Shown one piece after another: positions 12,094 to 33,343 of a DNA stretch of 64,000 bases (its first letter is position 1; every line of letters begins with the position of its first letter). This DNA comes from Paenacidovorax caeni (lineage in GTDB: Bacteria > Cyanobacteriota > Cyanobacteriia > PCC-6307 > Cyanobiaceae), in contig CALRUP020000005.1 of the NCBI GenBank assembly GCA_943371385.1, positions 1,365-65,364 of the forward strand, given 5' to 3'. The notes below the pieces were generated by a model. The model had not been told where the DNA came from. It did not search any database and worked only from the letters and a program-made list of their open reading frames with translations. The position numbers were made by a program, and so were the translations under genes.

Positions 12094-13074
12094 TCAGACG
12101 GCCGCCAGGCCCTTCTCGTTGAACACCCCTTCGAACAGCACCGAGGAGAGATAGCGTTCGCCGGAATCCGGCAGCACCACCACGATCGTCTTGCCGGCGT
12201 AGGCGGGTTCGTTGGCCAGGCGCACCGCCGCCACCGTGGCCGCACCGCAGGAGATGCCAGCCAGAATGCCCTCCTCACGGGCGAGGCGCCGGGCCATGGC
12301 CACGGCGTCCTCGTCGCTCACCTGCTCGATCCGGTCCACCAGATCGAGCTCGAGGTTGTCCGGCACGAAACCGGCTCCGATGCCCTGGATCTTGTGGGGT
12401 CCGGGCTTGATCGGCTCCCCCGCCTTGGTCTGGCTGATCACCGGGCTGTTGAGCGGCTCGACAGCCACCGACACCAGGGGCTTGCCCAGGGTCTGCTTGA
12501 TATAGCGGCTGACACCGGTGATGGTGCCGCCGGTGCCCACCCCCGAGACGAACACGTCGACGACGCCATCGGTCTGCTCCCAGATTTCCGGGCCGGTGGT
12601 GTCGTGGTGCACCTGGGGGTTGGCGGGATTGGCGAACTGCTGCAGCAGCACGTAGCGATCGGGATCGGAGGCGGCGATGGCCTGGGCCCGGGAGACCGCA
12701 CCGCTCATCCCCAGGCGGCCTTCTGTGAGCTCCAAGTGGGCCCCGTAGGCGGTGAGCAGCTTGCGCCGTTCGAGGCTCATCGTCTCCGGCATCGTCAAGG
12801 TGAGCCGGATGCCGCGGGAGGCCGCAACGAAGGCCAGGGCAATGCCGGTGTTGCCGCTGGTGGGCTCGATCAGTTCCTTTCCGGGACCCAGCAGGCCGTC
12901 TCGCTCCGCCTGCCAGATCATCGCCGCCCCGATCCGGCACTTGACCGAATAGGCGGGGTTGCGGCCCTCGATCTTGGCCAGAACCCGCGCCTGGGCATCA
13001 CCGACGACGCGGTTGAGCTGCACCAGGGGGGTGTGGCCGATGCTCAGGCTGTTGTCAGCGAAGACGGCGCCCAT
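12094..13074 (-). CDS. cysK: Cysteine synthase A
   Basis: PLP lysine motif [33 protein letters not shown] and DSGERYLS. Confidence 0.95.
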
Positions 13075-13217
13075 CGAAAGGTCTGGGTAGGTGAGCGCAC
13101 CCTAAGGGAGCCTTCCGATTCGGGCCAAAGCCGGTTGTCAAGTCCTTCAGACACCACCTTCAGGCCTTGCAGAGCCGTACATTTCAGCGATTACGGTCCC
13201 GCAAGGAGTCGTCAGCG

Positions 13218-13739
13218 ATGGGCCTCACCGCACTTCAGCACGGTGGTCCGGCGGTCCTGCCGCTGCTGTTGTTGTCGGTCGTGGTCGTGGCCATCGGCGT
13301 CGATCGGGCCCGCTACTGGCGGGCTCAGGGCCTCGGCTCCTCCCGGGGCGAACGGCTGCTGGCGGAGGCCCTCCAGGGCAGCGCGGACCCTGGACAGTCA
13401 AAGCTGCGTCAGGAGCTGCTGCTGCGACAACTGGAACGCCAGGGAGCCAGTGGCGAGGCGGTGCTGGAAGCCGCCGCCGTGATCGGCCCCCTGCTGGGCC
13501 TGATCGGTACCGTCGCCGGGCTGATCCGGGCCCTGGCGGACCTGGGCCCCCAGCTGGTGCTGCCCAGCGGCGGCGCCAGCCTGACCAGCTATTCCCAGGT
13601 GCTGGTGAGCACTCTGCTCGGTCTGGTGGTGGCCTTGATCGCCACCGTGGTGCTGCGCACCAACCGGGGCCTGCGCCTGCGGCAGCGGCAGCAGCTCGAA
13701 ACCGCGGGCTTGCGTCTCGCCCTGGAGGCTCAGCCATGA
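13218..13739 (+). CDS. MotA/TolQ/ExbB proton-channel protein
   Basis: Three TM segments with IGPLLGLIGTV and STLLGLVVAL. RBS AGGAG upstream. Confidence 0.82.
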   Translation: MGLTALQHGGPAVLPLLLLSVVVVAIGVDRARYWRAQGLGSSRGERLLAEALQGSADPGQSKLRQELLLRQLERQGASGEAVLEAAAVIGPLLGLIGTVAGLIRALADLGPQLVLPSGGASLTSYSQVLVSTLLGLVVALIATVVLRTNRGLRLRQRQQLETAGLRLALEAQP

Positions 13740-23989: not shown

Positions 23990-25579
23990 TCAGGCTGTGG
24001 CTGCCAGCTCGACCTTCACCGGCGACGGAACGCTCGGCTGATTGAGCTGCCCCTGGCGATAGGCGGCCAGTTGATTCTCGATCTGCCGGCGCACGATCTC
24101 CCGGTACTCCATGAAATGCTCGTTGTGGGCACACACGGCCAGGTACTGCTCGGTCACCTTGGGGTTGGAGCGAAGGATGCTGAACAGGTGATGCCAAAAG
24201 GCCCAGCGGGTGGAGCGCTTGATCCCCTGACGCCAGCAGACGATCAGCAGCGCCCGGATCACCACCGGATCGGGAAGTTTGAAGGCGCTCTTCACCCTGG
24301 CTGGGCCGAGTTTAAGGAAATAGCGATGCACCCGGTCGAGATACTTACGCGGTTCATAGAGCTGGCAGAACGCTTCGACATACTCCTGGGCAATGTCTTC
24401 CACCGGCCTGGTCGGCACGAAATTCATCAGGGTGGTCTGGTTGATGTTGCCGACCTTGTCGATCAGCCGCCCTTCCTTCTCGAGCCTGTGCCAGAGGGCG
24501 GTATGGGGCAGGGCCTGAAGCATGGCGAAGGTGGTGGTGGGAATCCCCGCAGCTTCTGAGAAGGCCACGATCCGCTGACCGGCTCCCACCTTCTCCCCAT
24601 CGAAGCCGATGATGAAACCGGCGATCACCCTCAAGCCAGAGCGGGTCACCTTGTCGATCGAGTCGAGCAGGGGCGAGCGCATGTTCTGGAACTTCATGGT
24701 TGCGGCGAGGCTGTCGGCATCGGGGGTTTCGATACCCATGAAGACGGCGGCAAAGTTGCAGGCCAGCATCTGATCGATGAGTTCCTGATCGTCAGCCAGA
24801 TCGAGGGAAGCTTCGGTATCGAAGCGGAAGGGGTAGCCATGCTCTCGCTGCCAACGCTCCAGCGCCGTGAGCATCATCTTGACGTTGCGCTTGTTGCCGA
24901 TGAAGTTGTCATCGACCATGAACACACCACCCCGCCAGCCGAGGGTATAGAGGCTGTTGAGTTCGCCGATGAGTTGATCCGGTGACTTGGTCCGGGGTTT
25001 GCGGCCATAGAGCACGATGATGTCGCAGAATTCGCACTGGAATGGGCAGCCGCGCGAGAACTGCACGCTCATCGAGTCGTAGGCCTTGAGCTCGAGCAGG
25101 TCGTAGCGGGGAATCGGCGTGGATGTCACATCCGGCTTGACACCATTGGAGCTGAATCGTCCTCCTTGATCGCCCCTCTCCCAGGCCGCCACGAACATGG
25201 GCAGGGTGATCTCACCTTCATCGAGGATCAGGTAATCGGCCCCGGCGGCCACAAGCTCCTCGGGGGTGGAGGATGGATAGGGACCGCCTACGGCCACGGG
25301 CTTGCCGTGATGCCTGGCCAGATTGATCTGGCGAATGATGTCGTCTTTCTGAACGATCATCGCCGACATGATCACCAGATCAGCCCACATCCACTCTTGA
25401 TCAGTGACGGGCAGGATGTTCACATCAGCCAGCTTGAAGTTCCAATCCTGGGGCAGGATGGCCGCCACGGTGATCAATCCAAGCGGCGGCAGGAGAACCT
25501 TTCGATTCACCAGTTCGAGGATTTTCTCGTAACTCCAGAATGTTTTGGGAAACTCGGGATAAACCAGTAAGACATTCAT
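23990..25579 (-). CDS. B12-binding radical SAM protein with DUF4070 (class B methyltransferase-like)
   Basis: PPLGLITVAA, VAVGGPY, SRGCPFQCEFC (CxxxCxxC), DDNFIG, GIET and FIIGFD. Confidence 0.88.
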   Translation of the reverse strand: MNVLLVYPEFPKTFWSYEKILELVNRKVLLPPLGLITVAAILPQDWNFKLADVNILPVTDQEWMWADLVIMSAMIVQKDDIIRQINLARHHGKPVAVGGPYPSSTPEELVAAGADYLILDEGEITLPMFVAAWERGDQGGRFSSNGVKPDVTSTPIPRYDLLELKAYDSMSVQFSRGCPFQCEFCDIIVLYGRKPRTKSPDQLIGELNSLYTLGWRGGVFMVDDNFIGNKRNVKMMLTALERWQREHGYPFRFDTEASLDLADDQELIDQMLACNFAAVFMGIETPDADSLAATMKFQNMRSPLLDSIDKVTRSGLRVIAGFIIGFDGEKVGAGQRIVAFSEAAGIPTTTFAMLQALPHTALWHRLEKEGRLIDKVGNINQTTLMNFVPTRPVEDIAQEYVEAFCQLYEPRKYLDRVHRYFLKLGPARVKSAFKLPDPVVIRALLIVCWRQGIKRSTRWAFWHHLFSILRSNPKVTEQYLAVCAHNEHFMEYREIVRRQIENQLAAYRQGQLNQPSVPSPVKVELAATA

Positions 25580-26619: not shown

Positions 26620-28362
26620 TTGCCATCAACTCGGACCAGAATAGGTGCTTGCCTGATCGTGGCCATCGGCTGCACGTCACAGCACGCCTGGGCCCAGTCC
26701 CTGCCCTCGGGGGGGATCCAGCGTTTCGAGCGCGACCAGCGCCTGCGGGATGCGCTTGATGACCAGAACCGGCGCCTGCTGGAGCAGCGCAACAAGCCGG
26801 TGGTTCCCGAATCCCTGCCCCAGGGCAAGGAACCAAAACTGGAGACCGCGCCTGACTTCCTCTACGGCAGCGTGCGCCTCGAAGGCGTGTCGGTGGAGTG
26901 GAAGGGCCAACTCGAGGGCCTGGCGGCGCCCTATCTGAACCGTCCCGTGAGCCTGCGGGATCTGGAAACCCTGCGCAGCGCCATCCGCGACGCCTACCGA
27001 ACCCGCAACCTGCTCGGCCTGGTGCGGATCGATCCCAGCGGCCCCAAGGGGGGAGTGCTTGTGATCACGGTGACCGAAGCGCGCATGGGGGAGGTGAAGA
27101 TCGATTCAAGCGTCCGCCATCACCTCAATGACGGCATCGCCAAGGCCACCGTGCGGGCCTCGGTTCCGCAGGGCAGCCTGCTGCGGCTCGACAAGCTCAC
27201 CTCCGCCCTGCTCAAGCTCAACGATCTGGCCGGCGTACGGGTGCGCTCCACGCTCCAGCCCGGGGCTACCGCAGGCACCACCGATGTGCTGCTGACCCTG
27301 AGGGACACCGACCGCACCAGCGGCGAGCTGAACATCAGCAACGAGATCAACCGCTTCCTCGGCTCCACCGACATCGATCTCACCCTCACCGGATCCAACC
27401 TCCTCGGCCGAGGTGAGCGGATCTCCCTGGAGGGGGCCTGGTGGGGCAACAACGTCAACACCGGCAACCTGGTGGGCTCCCTCAATGCCACCCTGCCCGT
27501 GACCCCCGATGGGGCCCAGCTCAACTTCTACGGCAACTACAACGCCTACCGCCTGCTCGATGAGCTGTATGACGCCGACATCAACGGCAGCACCGGCAAC
27601 CTGCGGCTGGGGTTCCAGCAGCCCCTGTGGCGCCGGCCGAAGGAGTCGCTCTGGGGCAGCGTGAGTGGCGAGGTCAACAGTTACATCGACCGGATTCAGA
27701 CCACGGAGATCCGCAACCGGGACAGCCAGGTGGCCCGCCTCTCGCTGTTGGGCCAGAAGCAGGATGCGATCCTCGGCACAGGTCTGAACACGGCCCTGTT
27801 CCAGTACAGCCTCGGCAATCTGGATCGCTCCGGTAATGCCAATGATCTGCTCCTCGATTCCCTGACGGCCCAGACCGACGGGGTCTTCAACAAGGTGGGG
27901 CTGGTGGTGAGTCGCTATCAGGTTTTCTCCGACCGCTGGCACGCAAAGGTGTTCCTCCAGGCCCAGAAGGCCTTCAACAATCTCGACGGTGCCGAGAAGC
28001 TCTCTCTCGGCTATCCGAACGGTGTGCGGGCCTACCCCCCGGGTGAAGCCCCAGGAGACAGCGGCTTCAGCGGGCAGTTCGATCTGATCTACCGGGCCAC
28101 TCCGGAGCTTTCTCTGGTGGCGTTCATCGATGGGGGGTACATCTGGCGCTGGACCAATCCCTTTCAAGGCTCCCTTGAGCCCAATGGCTATGGACTGGCC
28201 GGTGCGGGTTTCGGGGTGGATCTCGGCACCCCGGGGGAATGGCTCGCCTCCGTCAAGGTGGCTTTTCCCATGGGGAACAATCCCGGCAGTCTCGATGACA
28301 CCGATGCGGACGGCTTCAACAAGGGCGTGAGGGTCTGGGGTTCTCTGCGGTGGTGGTTCTGA
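26620..28362 (+). CDS. TpsB outer-membrane transporter (ShlB/FhaC/HecB family)
   Basis: Signal peptide, POTRA-like region, barrel loop-6 motif GVRAY, and C-terminal WWF. Confidence 0.88.
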   Translation: MPSTRTRIGACLIVAIGCTSQHAWAQSLPSGGIQRFERDQRLRDALDDQNRRLLEQRNKPVVPESLPQGKEPKLETAPDFLYGSVRLEGVSVEWKGQLEGLAAPYLNRPVSLRDLETLRSAIRDAYRTRNLLGLVRIDPSGPKGGVLVITVTEARMGEVKIDSSVRHHLNDGIAKATVRASVPQGSLLRLDKLTSALLKLNDLAGVRVRSTLQPGATAGTTDVLLTLRDTDRTSGELNISNEINRFLGSTDIDLTLTGSNLLGRGERISLEGAWWGNNVNTGNLVGSLNATLPVTPDGAQLNFYGNYNAYRLLDELYDADINGSTGNLRLGFQQPLWRRPKESLWGSVSGEVNSYIDRIQTTEIRNRDSQVARLSLLGQKQDAILGTGLNTALFQYSLGNLDRSGNANDLLLDSLTAQTDGVFNKVGLVVSRYQVFSDRWHAKVFLQAQKAFNNLDGAEKLSLGYPNGVRAYPPGEAPGDSGFSGQFDLIYRATPELSLVAFIDGGYIWRWTNPFQGSLEPNGYGLAGAGFGVDLGTPGEWLASVKVAFPMGNNPGSLDDTDADGFNKGVRVWGSLRWWF

Positions 28363-31271
28363 TGAAACAGTCAATGAACAGCGGATCGATCAGCCTGCGC
28401 CTGCTGCTGTGGCGTGCCTCCCACGCCGGGATGGCGGCCCTCGCCCTGGCCAGCGGGATTCCCTTGAGTCCTGCCCAGGCGTTGCCGACCGGGAACCAGC
28501 AGGTGGGCAGCGGCACCCACACGGCTACCCCTTCGGGCAACACCCTCACCGTCACCACGCCGGGCCGGGCGGTGATCAGCTGGGGCAGCTTCAACATCGG
28601 ACGGGGCGAAGCGGTCAACTTCCAGAACGGTGGCGCCGTTCTCAACTACGTACGCAGCGGTGGCGGGGCCTCTCGCCTCGATGGCGCCCTCAATGCCATC
28701 AATCCCCTGGTGTTGATCAACAACCAGGGCATCACGGTGGGCTCGACGGCCGTGATCTCCGTGCCCAGCATCCTGCTCACCAGTGGCACGCTCACCTCCG
28801 ACGGGGTGGAGAAGTTCCTCACTGGTGCGGCCTATGGCAACGGCCTGAATGCGCCGTTGATCAGCATCGTCATGGCCGATGGCGATGGGCCGGTTCAGGT
28901 GGACGGCAGCATCCGCTCCACCAATGGGGGCGGCATCGGCCTTGTGGCCCCATCCGTCACCATCGGCCCATCGGCCACCATCGTCACCCGCGGCTTCCGC
29001 ACCCCATCCACCGGCACCGATGGGGTCAACACCACCGTGAACGGTGTCGTAGCCGAAGGTTCACTCTGGATCGGCACCACCGGATTGCCAGCCAGCCCCT
29101 TCACGGCGCCTCCGGGGTTGCCCACCGGCTTCGGCTTCGTCCAGATCAGCGGCCAACCCTCGCCCCAGAGCGCGTCGCTGGCGTTGCAAGCCACCTACGA
29201 CCTCGAGCGTTTCGTGGTCAACACCAAGGGAGCCACGGTCGGGCAGTTCGATGGGCTGTTCTTCTCCCCCAGCTTCAGAGCTGCAGATTTCTACGTCTAT
29301 GACGGCATCGCCGCGATCGAAGAGGGCCACCGCGAAAGCACCAATGGAGGTTCCCTCAGGCGTCGCCTCACCCATACCGACGCCCAGGGCAACCTCGTCG
29401 CCGAGGAGAGGGACGAAGCCAGCATCCTTGGCCTGACGTTGCCGCCAGGGGCTGTATTACTGAACGCCGACGGTGTCCGCGTCGATCCAGCCTCCGGGCA
29501 GATCCTGACCGCAACGCTCACGGTTCAGCCGGGCCCCGATGCGGTGGCCAATCAAGATTTTATTAACCAGTTCGGCAGCGGGGCCCTGAAGGTCACGATC
29601 GACGGTGGCGCCTCGTCGGTGGTGGGCAGCAACGGGGCGAAGGCGGCTTATAACCCGCAGACGGGATTGATCACCTGGACCAAGACAATTCCGGGAACGC
29701 CCACGACCCAGATGGTGGCGATTCCTGGCGGATCGTTCACGATCAATCAGGGGCAGACGAATCCTGGTTTCACCAGGCCACCGGAAGCTGGAATTAGCCA
29801 GCAATATGTCAGCAAGGAGGGTTACTACTATCACGGCAATAACGGTCAGTACGCAGGAACCAGCCCTTGCCCTGGCTGCCGCTATGTGAATCCCGTCACC
29901 GGTCAGGTGACCTACTGGCGGGGGCACTTCACCACCGACAGCAACGGCCGCCCGCAGTTCAGCACCGCTGGCAATGTGCCTCCCACCCATGTGCTCTACG
30001 TGGTCGGTGGCCGGACCTACGTGACCGATGCGGCCAATTTCAATCCCCAGACCACACCGAAGAATCCACCCACCCAGGTGGTGACGCCGCCGATCTACCA
30101 GCAGGTCACCACGCCGGGCACTCCCACCGTGGTGCAGCTCCAGCAGGCGCTTCCCCTGACGGGTCAGGCCACGGTGCCCCAGGGTTCCGCCACCTCCAAC
30201 TGGCAGCGGCCGACGCCGCCACCCTTGGTGATCCAGGCTCCCGTGCCGCAGCCCACGACAGCACCCACTCCAGGCCAGGTGCCAACCATGGCGCCCGCTC
30301 TAGTGCCGCAGCCCACCACAGCTCCCACCCTTCAGCCACCTACGGCCGCGGTTCCCACCATGGCGCCGATCAAGGTGCCGCAGCCCACCACAGCTCCCAC
30401 CCTTCAGCCGCCTACGGCCGCGGTTCCCACCATGGCGCCGATCAAGGTGCCGCAGCCCACCACCGCACCCAAGCCCGGTCAGGTTCCGACGATGGCGCCT
30501 GGACTAGTACCACAACCCACCACGGCTCCCAAGCCGCTGCTAACTCCGACGATGGCTCCGGGGCTGTTGCCGCAACCGACGGCAGCGCCGAAGCCAACTC
30601 AGGGCCCGTCAGTAACACCGACCTTGGCGCCGACCTTTACGCCAACTCAGGGCCCGACGTCGGCACCGCAACCCACGCCGTCACCAACCCAGGCCCCCGT
30701 GCGGCAGCCGCTGCTGACGCCCACACTGGCACCACAGAAGGTGCCGCAACCGACGGCTGCGCCGAAGCCAACTCAGGGCCCGTCAGTGACACCGACCTTG
30801 GCCCCGACCTTGACGCCAACTCAGGGCCCGACGTCGGCACCGCAACCCACGCCGTCACCAACCCAGGCCCCCCTACGGCAGCCGCTGCTGACGCCCACAC
30901 TGGCACCGCAGAAGGTGCCGCAACCGACGGCTGCGCCGAAGCCGGTTCCTGGTCCCGTCCTCAGGCCGCTTCCCGTGGAGGAGCGGGTGCCCACCTCTGG
31001 AATGCGGCCTGTTCCACGCACCGATTCCTTCAGTTACCAGATCCCAAGGGGGCTCATCGAACAACGCATCCCTGGTGCCATCCCAGAGCAGAGCCGCGCA
31101 CGCCTCTTCGACGGACGTGCCCTGCCACCTGGAGTCGAATTCGATCCCTTCAGCCAGACCTTCGAGATCAAGAGCTACGGGAAAATCTCTCTACCGCTCG
31201 ACGTGCTCCTGCTCGTTCCGACCCGCAGTGGCACCACCGGCTCGTTCACCCTGACGATCGGCAAACCCTGA
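28362..31271 (+). CDS. TpsA exoprotein: FHA-type secretion domain, Pro/Thr mucin-like domain and C-terminal cadherin/He_PIG-like domain
   Basis: AQA-LPTG cleavage site, AVISWGSFNIG, V.FQN, S.LDG.L and LINNQGI (NPNG-like). ATG overlaps the tpsB TGA. Confidence 0.85.
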   Translation: MKQSMNSGSISLRLLLWRASHAGMAALALASGIPLSPAQALPTGNQQVGSGTHTATPSGNTLTVTTPGRAVISWGSFNIGRGEAVNFQNGGAVLNYVRSGGGASRLDGALNAINPLVLINNQGITVGSTAVISVPSILLTSGTLTSDGVEKFLTGAAYGNGLNAPLISIVMADGDGPVQVDGSIRSTNGGGIGLVAPSVTIGPSATIVTRGFRTPSTGTDGVNTTVNGVVAEGSLWIGTTGLPASPFTAPPGLPTGFGFVQISGQPSPQSASLALQATYDLERFVVNTKGATVGQFDGLFFSPSFRAADFYVYDGIAAIEEGHRESTNGGSLRRRLTHTDAQGNLVAEERDEASILGLTLPPGAVLLNADGVRVDPASGQILTATLTVQPGPDAVANQDFINQFGSGALKVTIDGGASSVVGSNGAKAAYNPQTGLITWTKTIPGTPTTQMVAIPGGSFTINQGQTNPGFTRPPEAGISQQYVSKEGYYYHGNNGQYAGTSPCPGCRYVNPVTGQVTYWRGHFTTDSNGRPQFSTAGNVPPTHVLYVVGGRTYVTDAANFNPQTTPKNPPTQVVTPPIYQQVTTPGTPTVVQLQQALPLTGQATVPQGSATSNWQRPTPPPLVIQAPVPQPTTAPTPGQVPTMAPALVPQPTTAPTLQPPTAAVPTMAPIKVPQPTTAPTLQPPTAAVPTMAPIKVPQPTTAPKPGQVPTMAPGLVPQPTTAPKPLLTPTMAPGLLPQPTAAPKPTQGPSVTPTLAPTFTPTQGPTSAPQPTPSPTQAPVRQPLLTPTLAPQKVPQPTAAPKPTQGPSVTPTLAPTLTPTQGPTSAPQPTPSPTQAPLRQPLLTPTLAPQKVPQPTAAPKPVPGPVLRPLPVEERVPTSGMRPVPRTDSFSYQIPRGLIEQRIPGAIPEQSRARLFDGRALPPGVEFDPFSQTFEIKSYGKISLPLDVLLLVPTRSGTTGSFTLTIGKP
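30303..30446 (+). repeat. 72-bp tandem repeat x2 (VPQPTTAPTLQPPTAAVPTMAPIK)
   Basis: Units start at 30303 and 30375; a partial third unit starts at 30447. Confidence 0.92.
30570..30944 (+). repeat. 174-bp tandem repeat x2 plus partial (58 aa, PQPTAAPKPTQGP...)
   Basis: Units start at 30570, 30744 and 30918. Confidence 0.92.
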
Positions 31272-31283
31272 ATGGGCTGAGCC

Positions 31284-32900
31284 ATGCCGAGCCTTGCACC
31301 AGGACTCAGCCTGATCATCGGCAGCCGCAACGAGGGTGCCTATCTACGGCGCACTGTTGAGGGAGCCTTTGCGCTCACCCCACCCGAGGGCGGTCTTGAA
31401 TGTTCGCTCTACGACGACGCCTCAAGCGATGGCAGCGCGGCGTTCTGCTACGAACCACCCTGGCGCCAACTCCGCGACCAGGGGGCCCTTCGCTTGCAAC
31501 GCGGTGCTGTCCGTGTCGGGGTCTCCCGGGGCCGACGCCAGGGTGCGGCCGGTTGCCGCGCAGAGGTGCTGGTGTTCCTTGATGCCCATCTGGAGTTTCC
31601 CCAGAGCGATCTCTGGTTGAAGGTTCAGGAGAAGTTCCGTGACCCGGCCTGCGATCTTCTGGGGATCGACTGCTTCGACAGTCGCAATGGTGCCACCACA
31701 GCTGGAACGATCTACAGCAGCAAGCGGCTGGATCACCTCAATCCGGCCTGGGTGCAGCAGCAAGCTGAGCCACTGGTGGGGATAGAGGTGCCCTTCGTGA
31801 ATGGCGGCTTCTTTGCCATTCGCCGTCGGGTCTACGAACGACTGGAGGGTTTTCCGGATTTCCTGGAGGACTGGGGCCATGAGGACCGCTTCCTCTCCAT
31901 GCTTGCCGGCATCTGTGGGTACCACTGCCGGATCGATCAACGGCTACGGGTCGGCCATCTCTACAAGGAGGTGTTCGATGAACGGGAGGGCCTTGCCTTG
32001 CCCGAAGCCTTCTCGGACCCGCTGCCTTCTGATGGCGTTGCCCTACCGGAGGTCGTCTACCGCCATGCCGATGCGGCAGCGGCGGGCGTGTCGACCCTGT
32101 TGATGAACAGCCTGCGGTGTGGCGCTGTGCTGTACAGCGCCGAGATCGCTGAGCGCATGAACGAGCAGCTGCGCTTCGATTTCGGCTCTGAGATGGTCGA
32201 AAGGGCCCTTGTGCTGCTTGAGCAGGAACGTCCCCAGCTGGAGGCCCTGATGCTTCGTCTTGGGCTCACCCCCGAACGGCGTGACCAGCAGATGGGGGAT
32301 TTCTTTCAGCGTTTCAGGCCCGTTCTGCCGATGCTGGAGGAGGCGGATCTGCAGGCCACGGCCACGATGGCGGATATTTCTCAGGCACTCGATCGATTGC
32401 GGCAGTTGCCCCTAACGCTGCCTTCCCTCGATCAGCCGGACGCTGACCATTACCGAACGGCCCGCCTCTACCGAGAAGCCCTCTATGGCTACCAGCTCCA
32501 GCGGCATGAGGAGGCCAGCCGTCTGCTGGCCGAGTTGCTGACGATAGATCCGGACTACCTGCCGGCCATCTGCCTGCTGTGTGTGAACCTGCGGGCCCTG
32601 GGGCGTCTGGCGGGCGAGCGATTCTGGCTGCAGCGGGGTGCCGAGATCATCGAGCGCCACCGCCCCCAGGTGGGTCCAGGCCCGGTCGGGGCGTTCCACC
32701 CCGCCAGCCTCAACCCCTACCTTCGCCATCTCTATTGGCCTGAGGCGGATCGGATGATCTGGGCAGCCCTGGCGGATCTAGAGGAGCGGGCTGGCCACAC
32801 ATCTGCGGCCGTGGGATGGCTGCTCAAGCTGCTCGATCAGTCGCCCGACGACCCTTCTGTGCGGGAGCAGTTGCTGCGGTTGGTGCAACCTCAGCCGTGA
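31284..32900 (+). CDS. Cytoplasmic GT-A glycosyltransferase with ppGalNAc-T-like motifs and C-terminal TPR-like helices
   Basis: SLII..RNE, FLDAHLE (DxH), PFVNGGFFAI.R, WGHED..LS...CG and RVGHLYK. No signal peptide or TM. 12 bp after tpsA. Confidence 0.8.
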   Translation: MPSLAPGLSLIIGSRNEGAYLRRTVEGAFALTPPEGGLECSLYDDASSDGSAAFCYEPPWRQLRDQGALRLQRGAVRVGVSRGRRQGAAGCRAEVLVFLDAHLEFPQSDLWLKVQEKFRDPACDLLGIDCFDSRNGATTAGTIYSSKRLDHLNPAWVQQQAEPLVGIEVPFVNGGFFAIRRRVYERLEGFPDFLEDWGHEDRFLSMLAGICGYHCRIDQRLRVGHLYKEVFDEREGLALPEAFSDPLPSDGVALPEVVYRHADAAAAGVSTLLMNSLRCGAVLYSAEIAERMNEQLRFDFGSEMVERALVLLEQERPQLEALMLRLGLTPERRDQQMGDFFQRFRPVLPMLEEADLQATATMADISQALDRLRQLPLTLPSLDQPDADHYRTARLYREALYGYQLQRHEEASRLLAELLTIDPDYLPAICLLCVNLRALGRLAGERFWLQRGAEIIERHRPQVGPGPVGAFHPASLNPYLRHLYWPEADRMIWAALADLEERAGHTSAAVGWLLKLLDQSPDDPSVREQLLRLVQPQP

Positions 32901-33046: not shown

Positions 33047-33343
33047 ATGAAAGCAAGCCTCAGCTTCGCCCTGATCACCGCTTAAAGCATGGTGGTGGCC
33101 ACCTCTCAAAGCCGGGCAGCTGAAGTTTCCAGCAATGCCACATCGGCCTGCATGGTGGCGGTGAACAAGCAGTACGGCGGCAATGTGCGCCACCTCAAGG
33201 TGGTGCGCAGCGAGTTCTCCCAGGCCAACTCCGAAGTGATCGTCAAGGCGATCGGTGTGCGTGGCGGCTCAAGCAATGAAAAATGGCGCTGCCTGGTCTC
33301 GAACAGCGGCAAGGTGCAGGACCTGAGCGTGGCCTGGAACTGA
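33047..33343 (+). pseudogene. Small secreted two-Cys protein with a premature stop in the signal peptide
   Basis: MKASLSFALITA*SMVVATSQSRA-AEVSS... is a single frame, with TAA at 33083-33085. Confidence 0.6.

Follow-up and report, generated by a model that had tools for sequence, protein, structure and literature searches.

What does a soluble glycosyltransferase modify when its gene stands directly behind the genes of a secreted repeat protein and its outer-membrane transporter? The question is raised by a GT-A enzyme with C-terminal tetratricopeptide repeats (TPRs), encoded in a 64,000-nucleotide stretch of picocyanobacterial DNA (assembly GCA_943371385.1, contig CALRUP020000005.1, positions 1,365 to 65,364), here called the window, to which coordinates without a prefix refer. 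A first-pass annotation had read the product as a bacterial relative of family GT27, the polypeptide N-acetylgalactosaminyltransferases (ppGalNAc-transferases, GalNAc-T) of mucin-type glycosylation. On balance we think it probable that the enzyme is instead a dedicated, TPR-guided cytoplasmic O-glycosyltransferase for the Pro/Thr (PT) repeats of the exported protein TpsA, whose gene immediately precedes its own.

The operon and the company the enzyme keeps

The genes for a two-partner-secretion (TPS) transporter (tpsB), its exoprotein (tpsA) and the glycosyltransferase read as a tight operon. The TGA stop of tpsB overlaps the ATG of tpsA (TGATG), and the glycosyltransferase, third in line, starts 12 nt past the tpsA stop. 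A scan of 25.5-33.6 kb for promoters and terminators returned nothing beyond shuffle expectation. TpsA, which would have 973 aa from an alternative GTG start at 28350, has a long signal-peptide-like N-terminus, a TPS domain (43.6 bits in Pfam, cut-off 33.5; 44.2 bits for TIGR01901, cut-off 29.1) and a C-terminal domain that has no Pfam match. In its repeat PT[LA]AP and PTTAP units dominate, as in PQPTTAP, VPTMAP and TPTLAP. Across the whole 2.83-Mb genome TpsA is the single outstanding PT-repeat protein, with 32 PTxxP motifs against 5 in the next best open reading frame (ORF); a giant protein encoded by a 9,409-codon ORF (C14:21091-49320, minus strand) has only 4. Because the repeat contains no NxS/T sequon (there is one in the whole of TpsA), O-linkage to Thr would be expected.

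We found 41 full-length homologues of the enzyme, down to 40% identity, confined to picocyanobacteria (Cyanobium, Synechococcus, Vulcanococcus and Aphanothece in NCBI names). Cultured carriers among NCBI records include Synechococcus sp. FACHB-909 and BO 8801, Cyanobium gracile UHCC 0281 and Cyanobium sp. ATX 6F1. Of the 301 genomes in the taxonomic family, 10 carry the gene, representing 7 of 64 genera; it lies in a lower-G+C stretch of the window and is best described as an accessory, island-type gene. A TpsA orthologue is present in 4 of the 301 genomes, and the glycosyltransferase adjoins it in all four. The order tpsB-tpsA-glycosyltransferase is kept in the window and in the related loci L001, L007/8, L009, L010, L012, L013 and L017; in L002, L011 and L014 the operon is interrupted by contig ends. 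Spacing between tpsA and the glycosyltransferase gene is -4 to +13 nt across these TPS-type loci, apart from 34 nt in L017. The exoprotein itself is variable in length, from 941 to 1586 aa where measured directly (one genome's 875-aa frame contains a stop). Two metagenome contigs, L007 (5162-7987) and L008 (4958-7987), encode an identical glycosyltransferase (P0012) beside TpsA of 941 and 1009 aa, respectively; because the difference amounts to two 34-aa PT-repeat units, repeat copy number appears to vary among natural populations. In two close relatives, L009:6208-9988 and L010:6319-10056, the tpsA repeat lies in two overlapping frames, reflecting either frameshift or misassembly.

Two further groups of loci have other partners. 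In loci of the ATP-binding cassette (ABC) type, which are without TpsAB (L018, L022, L005, L019, probably L021, and the most distant member, L029), the glycosyltransferase gene lies within or beside an ABC-ABC-HlyD gene set. Divergent from that set is a gene for a large protein that starts L..L.NLH.GDRE.Y.P and carries hundreds of residues of Thr/Pro repeat, composed of PTLAP/PTAAP/PTGAP units in L018 and, in L029, of TPG(M/L)VP units that extend over about 950 aa, ahead of five DUF5801 domains. PT[LA]AP units are common to the otherwise unrelated TpsA and L018 proteins, and the N-terminal NLHxGDRExY motif may be a signal for export or for docking to the glycosyltransferase. In the third group (L003/4, L015, probably L016) the glycosyltransferases are 57-59% identical to the query, and their genes run convergently towards that of a C39-peptidase ABC exporter and two or three small ones. 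The small genes encode double-glycine-leader peptides (MLE[ED]QIKDLQA...ELSDEELAG[VMI]AGG) whose cores, for example AIRGTGTTTMPPRTTTTRPPNLTRR, are short, basic and rich in Ser/Thr/Pro. In picocyanobacteria they could represent a new class of glycocin-like peptides that carry O-linked sugar.

In the tree of the glycosyltransferase family the ABC-type loci form a basal grade and the TPS-type loci a derived clade (support 99), within which the double-glycine type is nested. Because the locus types map onto the tree in this way, there appear to have been two switches of partner and export route, across which the neighbour remained an exported, Ser/Thr/Pro-rich product. Among some 20 related loci, the enzyme adjoins an exported Ser/Thr/Pro-rich product in every one with enough flank. 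The pairing of enzyme and repeat protein may extend past cyanobacteria: two of three sampled distant relatives with the same glycosyltransferase-TPR architecture, P0050 (L027, with an extra methyltransferase domain) and P0044 (L028), both from organisms of about 44% GC, adjoin giant proteins of 2163 aa (L027:1404-7892, minus strand) and 1503 aa (L028:1897-6405, minus strand) whose tracts contain 24-35% Pro and 16-40% Ser/Thr. It is chiefly on the recurrence of this pairing that the proposed function rests.

The same loci bear on a more conventional explanation, that of an ordinary GT2 enzyme of polysaccharide, lipopolysaccharide (LPS) or lipid-linked glycan synthesis that stands next to tpsA incidentally and uses its TPRs for assembly of a biosynthetic complex. 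Generic annotation would point that way: Pfam and NCBIfam return a generic GT2 enzyme, with weak NCBIfam matches to MftF, EpsD and HfsG, and homologues are annotated at NCBI as 'glycosyltransferase' and nothing more specific. GT-A enzymes of the 'ED' type, to which we return below, are moreover usually glycan-forming. However, the gene was never found in a polysaccharide cluster across the roughly 20 loci, an exported Ser/Thr/Pro-rich neighbour was kept through two changes of partner and route, and every TpsA-bearing genome has the glycosyltransferase adjoining tpsA. Nor does the protein show membrane association, and its kinship with the 23 other GT2 domains that the genome encodes is poor. 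We therefore regard this explanation as unlikely, though it is the one we would turn to first if the proposed function were wrong.

Architecture and catalytic site

The PF00535 (Glycos_transf_2) match of the enzyme covers residues 9-187 (50.9 bits in Pfam, cut-off 23.3) and ranks 20th among 24 such matches in its genome. A TPR_14 match follows at residues 492-533 (30.6 bits, cut-off 23.5), accompanied by weaker TPR_2 and TPR_19 matches in the C-terminal part and by a weak Glyco_transf_7C match at residues 173-202. The AlphaFold model, built with 19 homologues, has a predicted local distance difference test score (pLDDT) of 89 and a predicted template-modelling score of 0.82. In it strand beta1 starts at residue 8, directly at the N-terminus, and residues 8-225 alternate between strand and helix as a GT-A-type domain. 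A lower-confidence loop at residues 226-270, in which D245 is nearly invariant among family members, may be the counterpart of the mobile active-site loop of GT27. Residues 271-534 are all-helical, with 13-15 helices at a pLDDT of about 88-89 (88 when this domain is folded by itself), and Foldseek aligned the isolated domain weakly to consensus TPR proteins and to the TPR domain of O-GlcNAc transferase, OGT (E 8e-4 to 8e-3). These results uphold the TPRs of the first-pass annotation. When we looked for a specific peptide-binding TPR analogue, such as the substrate-binding domain of prolyl-4-hydroxylase, the folded domain matched generic TPR and OGT entries alone; PF23558 (TPR_P4H) has no match in the enzyme and matches 2 of 19 sister-clade proteins.

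No signal peptide and no hydrophobic or transmembrane segment was detected in the protein (maximum Kyte-Doolittle mean over 19 residues, 1.43), in line with the missing anchor noted at first pass, and the enzyme is predicted to be soluble and cytoplasmic. We rejected a membrane-bound or periplasmic form, given the missing hydrophobic segment. The ricin lectin domain PF00652 has no Pfam match in the protein, and TPRs take its position.

The motifs that had suggested a GT27-like site are all present, namely FLDAHLE (residues 98-104, nt 31575-31595), PFVNGGFFAIRR, DWGHEDRFLS and RVGHLYK, and they align to GalNAc-T1, T2 and T10. In HMMER alignments DAH pairs with DSH/DAH, NGGFF with AGGLF, WGHE with WGGE and VGH with VGH; the last pairing bears out H225 as the proposed third Mn-binding His. 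Across 19 homologues at 40-85% identity, DD44-45, D100-x-H102, NGG173-175, WGHED197-201 and H225 do not vary. Because every catalytic residue is invariant, catalysis would be the selected function of this protein, and the enzyme looks real and active.

What the earlier reading overlooked is the residue that follows the conserved Glu. It is Asp (WGHED) in every family member, as opposed to WGGEN in GalNAc-T1 and T2 and WGGEQ in T10, and D201 aligns to N335 of GalNAc-T2 and to the Gln of T10. An Asp in this place is the catalytic base of the inverting beta4Gal-T1 (D318) and is the same Asp as in the 'ED' motif of inverting GT2 enzymes; GT27 retains configuration, and an amide replaces the Asp. 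Because WGHED keeps the Asp that GT27 has as Asn or Gln, we infer with moderate confidence that the enzyme inverts, forming a beta-linkage with D201 as base.

Table 1. Features of the tpsB-tpsA-glycosyltransferase locus in the window, and repeat or peptide genes of related loci
Feature	Coordinates	Strand	Basis or remark
tpsB, outer-membrane two-partner-secretion transporter, 580 aa	26620..28362	+	ShlB 57.2 bits (cut-off 22.7), POTRA_2 31.1 (24)
tpsA, two-partner-secretion exoprotein with mucin-like Pro/Thr repeat	28362..31271	+	969 aa from ATG 28362
TPS secretion domain of TpsA, aa 43-204 of the 973-aa form	28476..28961	+	PF05860; filamentous haemagglutinin N-terminal domain model
Pro/Thr-rich repeat of TpsA, about 330 aa, proposed acceptor array	30015..31004	+	90 Pro, 61 Thr, 9 Ser
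DNA tandem repeat, 72 bp x 2.7 copies	30278..30471	+	92% match; within PT region
DNA tandem repeat, 174 bp x 2.2 copies	30568..30943	+	96% match; within PT region
Conserved C-terminal domain of TpsA, about 93 aa	30990..31268	+	44-88% identical in TpsA of L001, L007-L014, L017
GT-A/TPR glycosyltransferase gene	31284..32900	+	538 aa, ATG start; subject of this study
GT-A catalytic domain, aa 5-230	31296..31973	+	PF00535; full-length alignment to GT27 catalytic domains
Low-confidence loop/linker, aa 226-270	31959..32093	+	Conserved DP.P.DG patch; pLDDT 61-76 at aa 230-250
C-terminal all-helical TPR-like solenoid, aa 271-534	32094..32885	+	Pfam TPR matches, AlphaFold, Foldseek
DxH metal/nucleotide-sugar motif, D100-A101-H102	31581..31589	+	Invariant in 19/19 family members; aligns with DSH/DAH of T10, T2, T1
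W197-G-H-E200-D201	31872..31886	+	Gal/GalNAc-T motif position; family-invariant; D201 putative catalytic base
H225, third metal ligand (RVGHLYK)	31956..31958	+	Family-invariant; aligns with GT27 VGH (H359 of GalNAc-T2)
L..L.NLH.GDRE.Y.P proteins	L029:435-9497 (-); L018:1558-4725 (-); L022:2346-4712 (-); L005:8970-9455 (+); L019:8046-8784 (+)		No signal peptide
Double-glycine-leader peptide clusters	L003:9956-11367 (-); L015 ~12600-13400 (-)		Between glycosyltransferase orthologue and C39-ABC exporter

Two flanking features of the window are recorded here in their own right. Upstream of the operon, on the minus strand (23990-25579), lies a gene for a B12-binding radical-SAM protein with DUF4070; the lowest G+C of the window (0.595, at 24-26 kb) falls there, which fits an accessory island. 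On the 3' side of the glycosyltransferase gene a small ORF (33047-33343, plus strand) reads MKASLSFALITA-TAA-SMVVATSQSRAAEV, with the in-frame TAA at 33083-33085. Its interrupted, signal-peptide-like start may mark a pseudogene, or translation may restart at ATG 33089 without the full signal peptide.

Place among GT27 and other DxH enzymes

Comparison with solved structures points consistently to GT27. Against all PDB sequences phmmer ranked GalNAc-T10 (E=1e-14) and T2 (3.6e-13) highest, over query residues 5-280; the top list consists of T10, T2, T1, T12, T9, T4, T7 and Toxoplasma enzymes (E 1e-14 to 1e-9), and the first match outside GT27 is the archaeal GT2 enzyme 6yv7 (E 9e-6). Identity to GT27 is 20-23%. 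When the model was searched against the PDB with Foldseek, the first 50 rows were all GT27 (E 1e-13 to 3e-10, about 360 aligned columns). We also ran a profile of the family's catalytic domain against the PDB, the enzyme's own genome and a set of representative proteins. In the PDB it scored 44-60 bits against at least 13 GT27 sequences, aligned along profile positions 6-231, with 36.8 bits for the best match outside GT27, again 6yv7; TarP, GalT1, the heparosan and chondroitin synthases, DPMS and ArnC reached at most 24 bits, in the nucleotide-binding half only. In its own genome the 23 other PF00535 domains, which have DxD and not DxH, scored at most 34 bits, and all but two of those that matched aligned in this N-terminal half only. 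Because its paralogues score no higher than this, the enzyme appears closer to human GalNAc-transferases than to the GT2 enzymes of its own cell.

This kinship is not a specific one, however. Among 1.84 billion representative proteins the profile found 8,709 matches at E<1e-3 and 730 at E<1e-10, and within the top 150 those outside the family scored 83-166 bits, well above GT27. The nearest non-cyanobacterial relatives were metagenome proteins in 10 of 10 clusters looked up. A FastTree of 162 catalytic domains places the family (support 100) within a 28-row clade (support 99), many of whose other members are metagenome proteins of about 500 aa that likewise join a glycosyltransferase to TPRs. 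GT27 groups with P0078, a eukaryote-type enzyme with a Ricin_B_lectin domain, and then with the WGGEN-bearing P0081 and P0102, inside a separate 111-row subclade. In an IQ-TREE subsample the approximately unbiased (AU) test rejected an exclusive clade of the family and GT27 (log-likelihood difference 47, p=0.002), a grouping named after the first tree had been seen. On the trees and the AU test we therefore reject the family as a member or specific sister of GT27. The Asp-His-His triad (DxH and the downstream His) is present in 125 of 128 aligned representatives, and Glu-Asp (WGxED) in 96 of the 128 and in all members of the family.

Judged from these alignments and trees, the family forms a clade of its own in a large DxH GT-A radiation, for the most part uncharacterised and probably mostly prokaryotic, that also includes GT27, and the enzyme does not nest among ordinary DxD GT2 enzymes. 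Nesting among ordinary rhamnosyl or LPS GT2 enzymes, which the first-pass annotation had named as the outcome that would speak against it, was not found. Of the relationship to GT27 claimed there, the part that stands is that these are the closest solved relatives by sequence and fold, and the part that does not is a specifically close relationship. No named sequence or structure of GT60, the polypeptide alpha-GlcNAc-transferases of protists that the first-pass annotation had coupled with GT27, turned up in the libraries searched. For the suggested bearing on how mucin-type glycosylation arose there is only loose support, with uncharacterised DxH proteins scoring above GT27 and trees that separate the family from GT27.

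In its stronger form that idea makes the protein a bacterial GT27 enzyme proper, a UDP-GalNAc:polypeptide alpha-GalNAc-transferase with a retaining mechanism, which would place Tn-like mucin-type O-glycans on the TpsA repeat. It would account for GT27 as the best PDB matches in both sequence and fold, for the common metal triad and W-G-x-E core, and for PTxxP and PT[LA]AP contexts that resemble the preferences of ppGalNAc-transferases. Set against this are the invariant WGHED, where GalNAc-T1, T2 and T10 have Asn or Gln after the Glu; the placement in a different clade from GT27 and the WGGEN-bearing P0081 and P0102, with the AU result given above; the missing ricin domain and membrane anchor; and, as weaker evidence, the lack of conservation at residues aligned to the proline pocket. 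We consider an enzyme of this kind improbable, and more so than the ordinary GT2 enzyme discussed above.

P0081 (654 aa) and P0102 (755 aa) deserve mention in themselves. They combine DAH/DCH with a true WGGEN and group with eukaryotic GT27 in both trees; P0081 has the downstream His and begins directly in the catalytic domain with no anchor, and P0102 has Asp in place of that His. By these features they would qualify better than the present family as candidate close relatives of the ppGalNAc-transferases that are not of eukaryote type.

Proposed function and known counterparts

On the choice of acceptor, the sequence of events, the part played by the TPRs and the stereochemistry, our proposal is as follows. 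The TPR solenoid would bind the extended Pro/Thr repeat and feed it to the active site of the GT-A domain, where D100, H102 and H225 would hold Mn2+. A monosaccharide would then pass from a nucleotide-sugar donor to Thr (perhaps Ser) hydroxyls of the TpsA repeat, with D201 as base. Glycosylation would take place before TpsA leaves the cytoplasm, and export via Sec and the TpsB pore would follow; we place the modification there because nucleotide sugars are cytoplasmic and the substrate crosses the inner membrane unfolded. Small cytoplasmic glycans are compatible with TPS and C39-ABC export, as in HMW1C/HMW1A/HMW1B, EtpC/A/B and the glycocins. That the TPRs hold an unfolded substrate, as suggested at first pass, is plausible, and the gene context points to an unfolded Pro/Thr-rich polypeptide. 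The proposal would also draw support from the closest solved relatives, GT27, being enzymes that glycosylate polypeptides.

Several observations weigh against this proposal. The adjacency of enzyme and repeat is correlative, and large proteins with PT linkers are not rare. The third distant relative sampled, in L026, has no neighbour with a Pro/Thr/Ser tract, and the glycosyltransferase in L003, L015 and L016 may be an orphan left after loss of tpsAB. In its model the C-terminal domain is TPR-like with generic TPR matches only, and so lacks a specific analogue. The residues F280 and W282 of the GalNAc-T2 proline pocket align to Lys/Arg147 and Leu149, in a hand reading of a poorly aligned stretch; because these pocket-aligned residues differ, they give no support to a GT27-type peptide groove. 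The predicted inversion depends on a single aligned residue together with general knowledge of mechanism. Finally, no RNA run with the locus was found, and the six runs that contain it are DNA metagenomes.

It is also conceivable that the protein serves mainly as a TPR chaperone or secretion accessory for the repeat protein, its glycosyltransferase domain acting on another molecule or on itself. TPR domains are commonly chaperone or adaptor modules, and the weak MftF similarity would suggest a peptide-derived small-molecule acceptor. Listeria GmaR, a TPR-containing flagellin O-GlcNAc transferase, does have a second, non-catalytic role (PMC9638930). However, all catalytic residues of the present enzyme are invariant, and no acceptor candidate other than the Ser/Thr/Pro-rich tract is conserved nearby. 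We consider a mainly accessory role very unlikely, the least probable of the alternatives weighed here.

Dedicated O-glycosylation of TpsA, the function we prefer, has counterparts in several systems. For operon logic the best analogy would be the HMW1ABC operon of Haemophilus influenzae and the EtpBAC operon of enterotoxigenic Escherichia coli. HMW1C and EtpC (GT41) are cytoplasmic, co-operonic with TpsA and TpsB, and modify the exoprotein at many sites before Sec/TpsB export. HMW1C is a GT-B N-glycosyltransferase acting on NxS/T, with an all-alpha N-terminal domain, whereas the present enzyme is GT-A with C-terminal TPRs; an N-glycosylating analogue of HMW1C is ruled out by the repeat's lack of sequons. 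GT27, represented by human GalNAc-T2 (2FFU/4D0T) and T10 (2D7I), resembles the enzyme in its GT-A fold, in the DxH and downstream His Mn ligands, in the (A/N)GG(L/F)F loop and in the W-G-x-E motif. Its acceptor is a polypeptide Ser/Thr in a Pro-rich context, which for the present enzyme is the acceptor we propose. It differs as a Golgi type II membrane protein with a ricin B lectin, against a soluble cytoplasmic protein with a TPR solenoid, and as a retaining enzyme with Asn or Gln after the motif Glu, against Asp in an enzyme that probably inverts.

GmaR has a GT2 domain. TPRs are present both in GmaR of Listeria monocytogenes and in Caulobacter FlmG (PMC9638930, PMC7591256). Like our enzyme, the two are soluble cytoplasmic glycosyltransferases; they O-glycosylate Ser/Thr of a protein exported later, as we propose here, and the product of GmaR is beta-O-GlcNAc on flagellin. 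Their substrate is a folded flagellin and not a Pro/Thr repeat, their gene context and secretion route differ, and no sequence match to GmaR or FlmG was detectable in our PDB searches.

The GT2 glycocin enzymes SunS, ThuS and GccA have a GT-A fold and glycosylate peptides in the cytoplasm before double-glycine-leader C39-ABC export, an arrangement that resembles L003 and L015. The peptide cores there are Ser/Thr/Pro-rich and basic, whereas glycocins are Cys-containing helical hairpins; SunS-type enzymes are absent from the sequence matches of our enzyme, and the window itself contains no double-glycine-leader peptides. GtfA/GtfB with the accessory Sec system, which glycosylate serine-rich-repeat adhesins, and SgtA with BclA3 in Clostridioides difficile match the proposed function in dedicated cytoplasmic O-glycosylation of a long, low-complexity Ser/Thr repeat of a surface protein, and are likewise encoded next to substrate and export genes. 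They differ in being GT4/GT-B or multi-domain enzymes, in using accessory Sec or the exosporium, and in their Gram-positive hosts of other phyla. In the literature on cyanobacterial two-partner secretion with glycosyltransferases, on SwmA-type glycoproteins and on bacterial GT27 we found no description of the present system.

Cytoplasmic glycosyltransferases coupled to the secretion of repeat proteins are thus a known kind, and what would be new is the enzyme family and the O-linked target. To our knowledge, the only glycosyltransferases known to be dedicated to two-partner-secretion exoproteins are the GT41 N-glycosyltransferases (HMW1C, EtpC) of a few pathogens. In abundant freshwater picocyanobacteria the O-linked equivalent, on a mucin-like repeat, appears to fall to a different enzyme family, which we describe as a new, uncharacterised clade of soluble DxH GT-A/TPR enzymes with exported Pro/Thr repeats as their probable targets of O-glycosylation. 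One may go further and read the whole as true picocyanobacterial 'mucins', in which a TPR-guided GT-A family densely O-glycosylates Thr on cargo exported by TpsAB, ABC/HlyD and C39-ABC routes, and as a living inverting, soluble stage before the retaining Golgi ppGalNAc-transferases; this joint reading is tentative, and we would not expect it to hold in full.

Uncharacterised GT-A enzymes that have not lost the 'ED' appear widely to share the Asp-His-His site of GT27, which places GT27 inside a large radiation. A family that tracks Ser/Thr/Pro-rich cargo over three export routes would offer a rule, open to test, by which bacterial O-glycoproteins could be recognised in sequence data, possibly with a new class of glycosylated double-glycine-leader peptides among them, and a soluble enzyme that glycosylates PT repeats could serve bacterial glyco-engineering. 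For the picocyanobacteria themselves, such surface glycoproteins would be prime candidates for interactions with phages and grazers.

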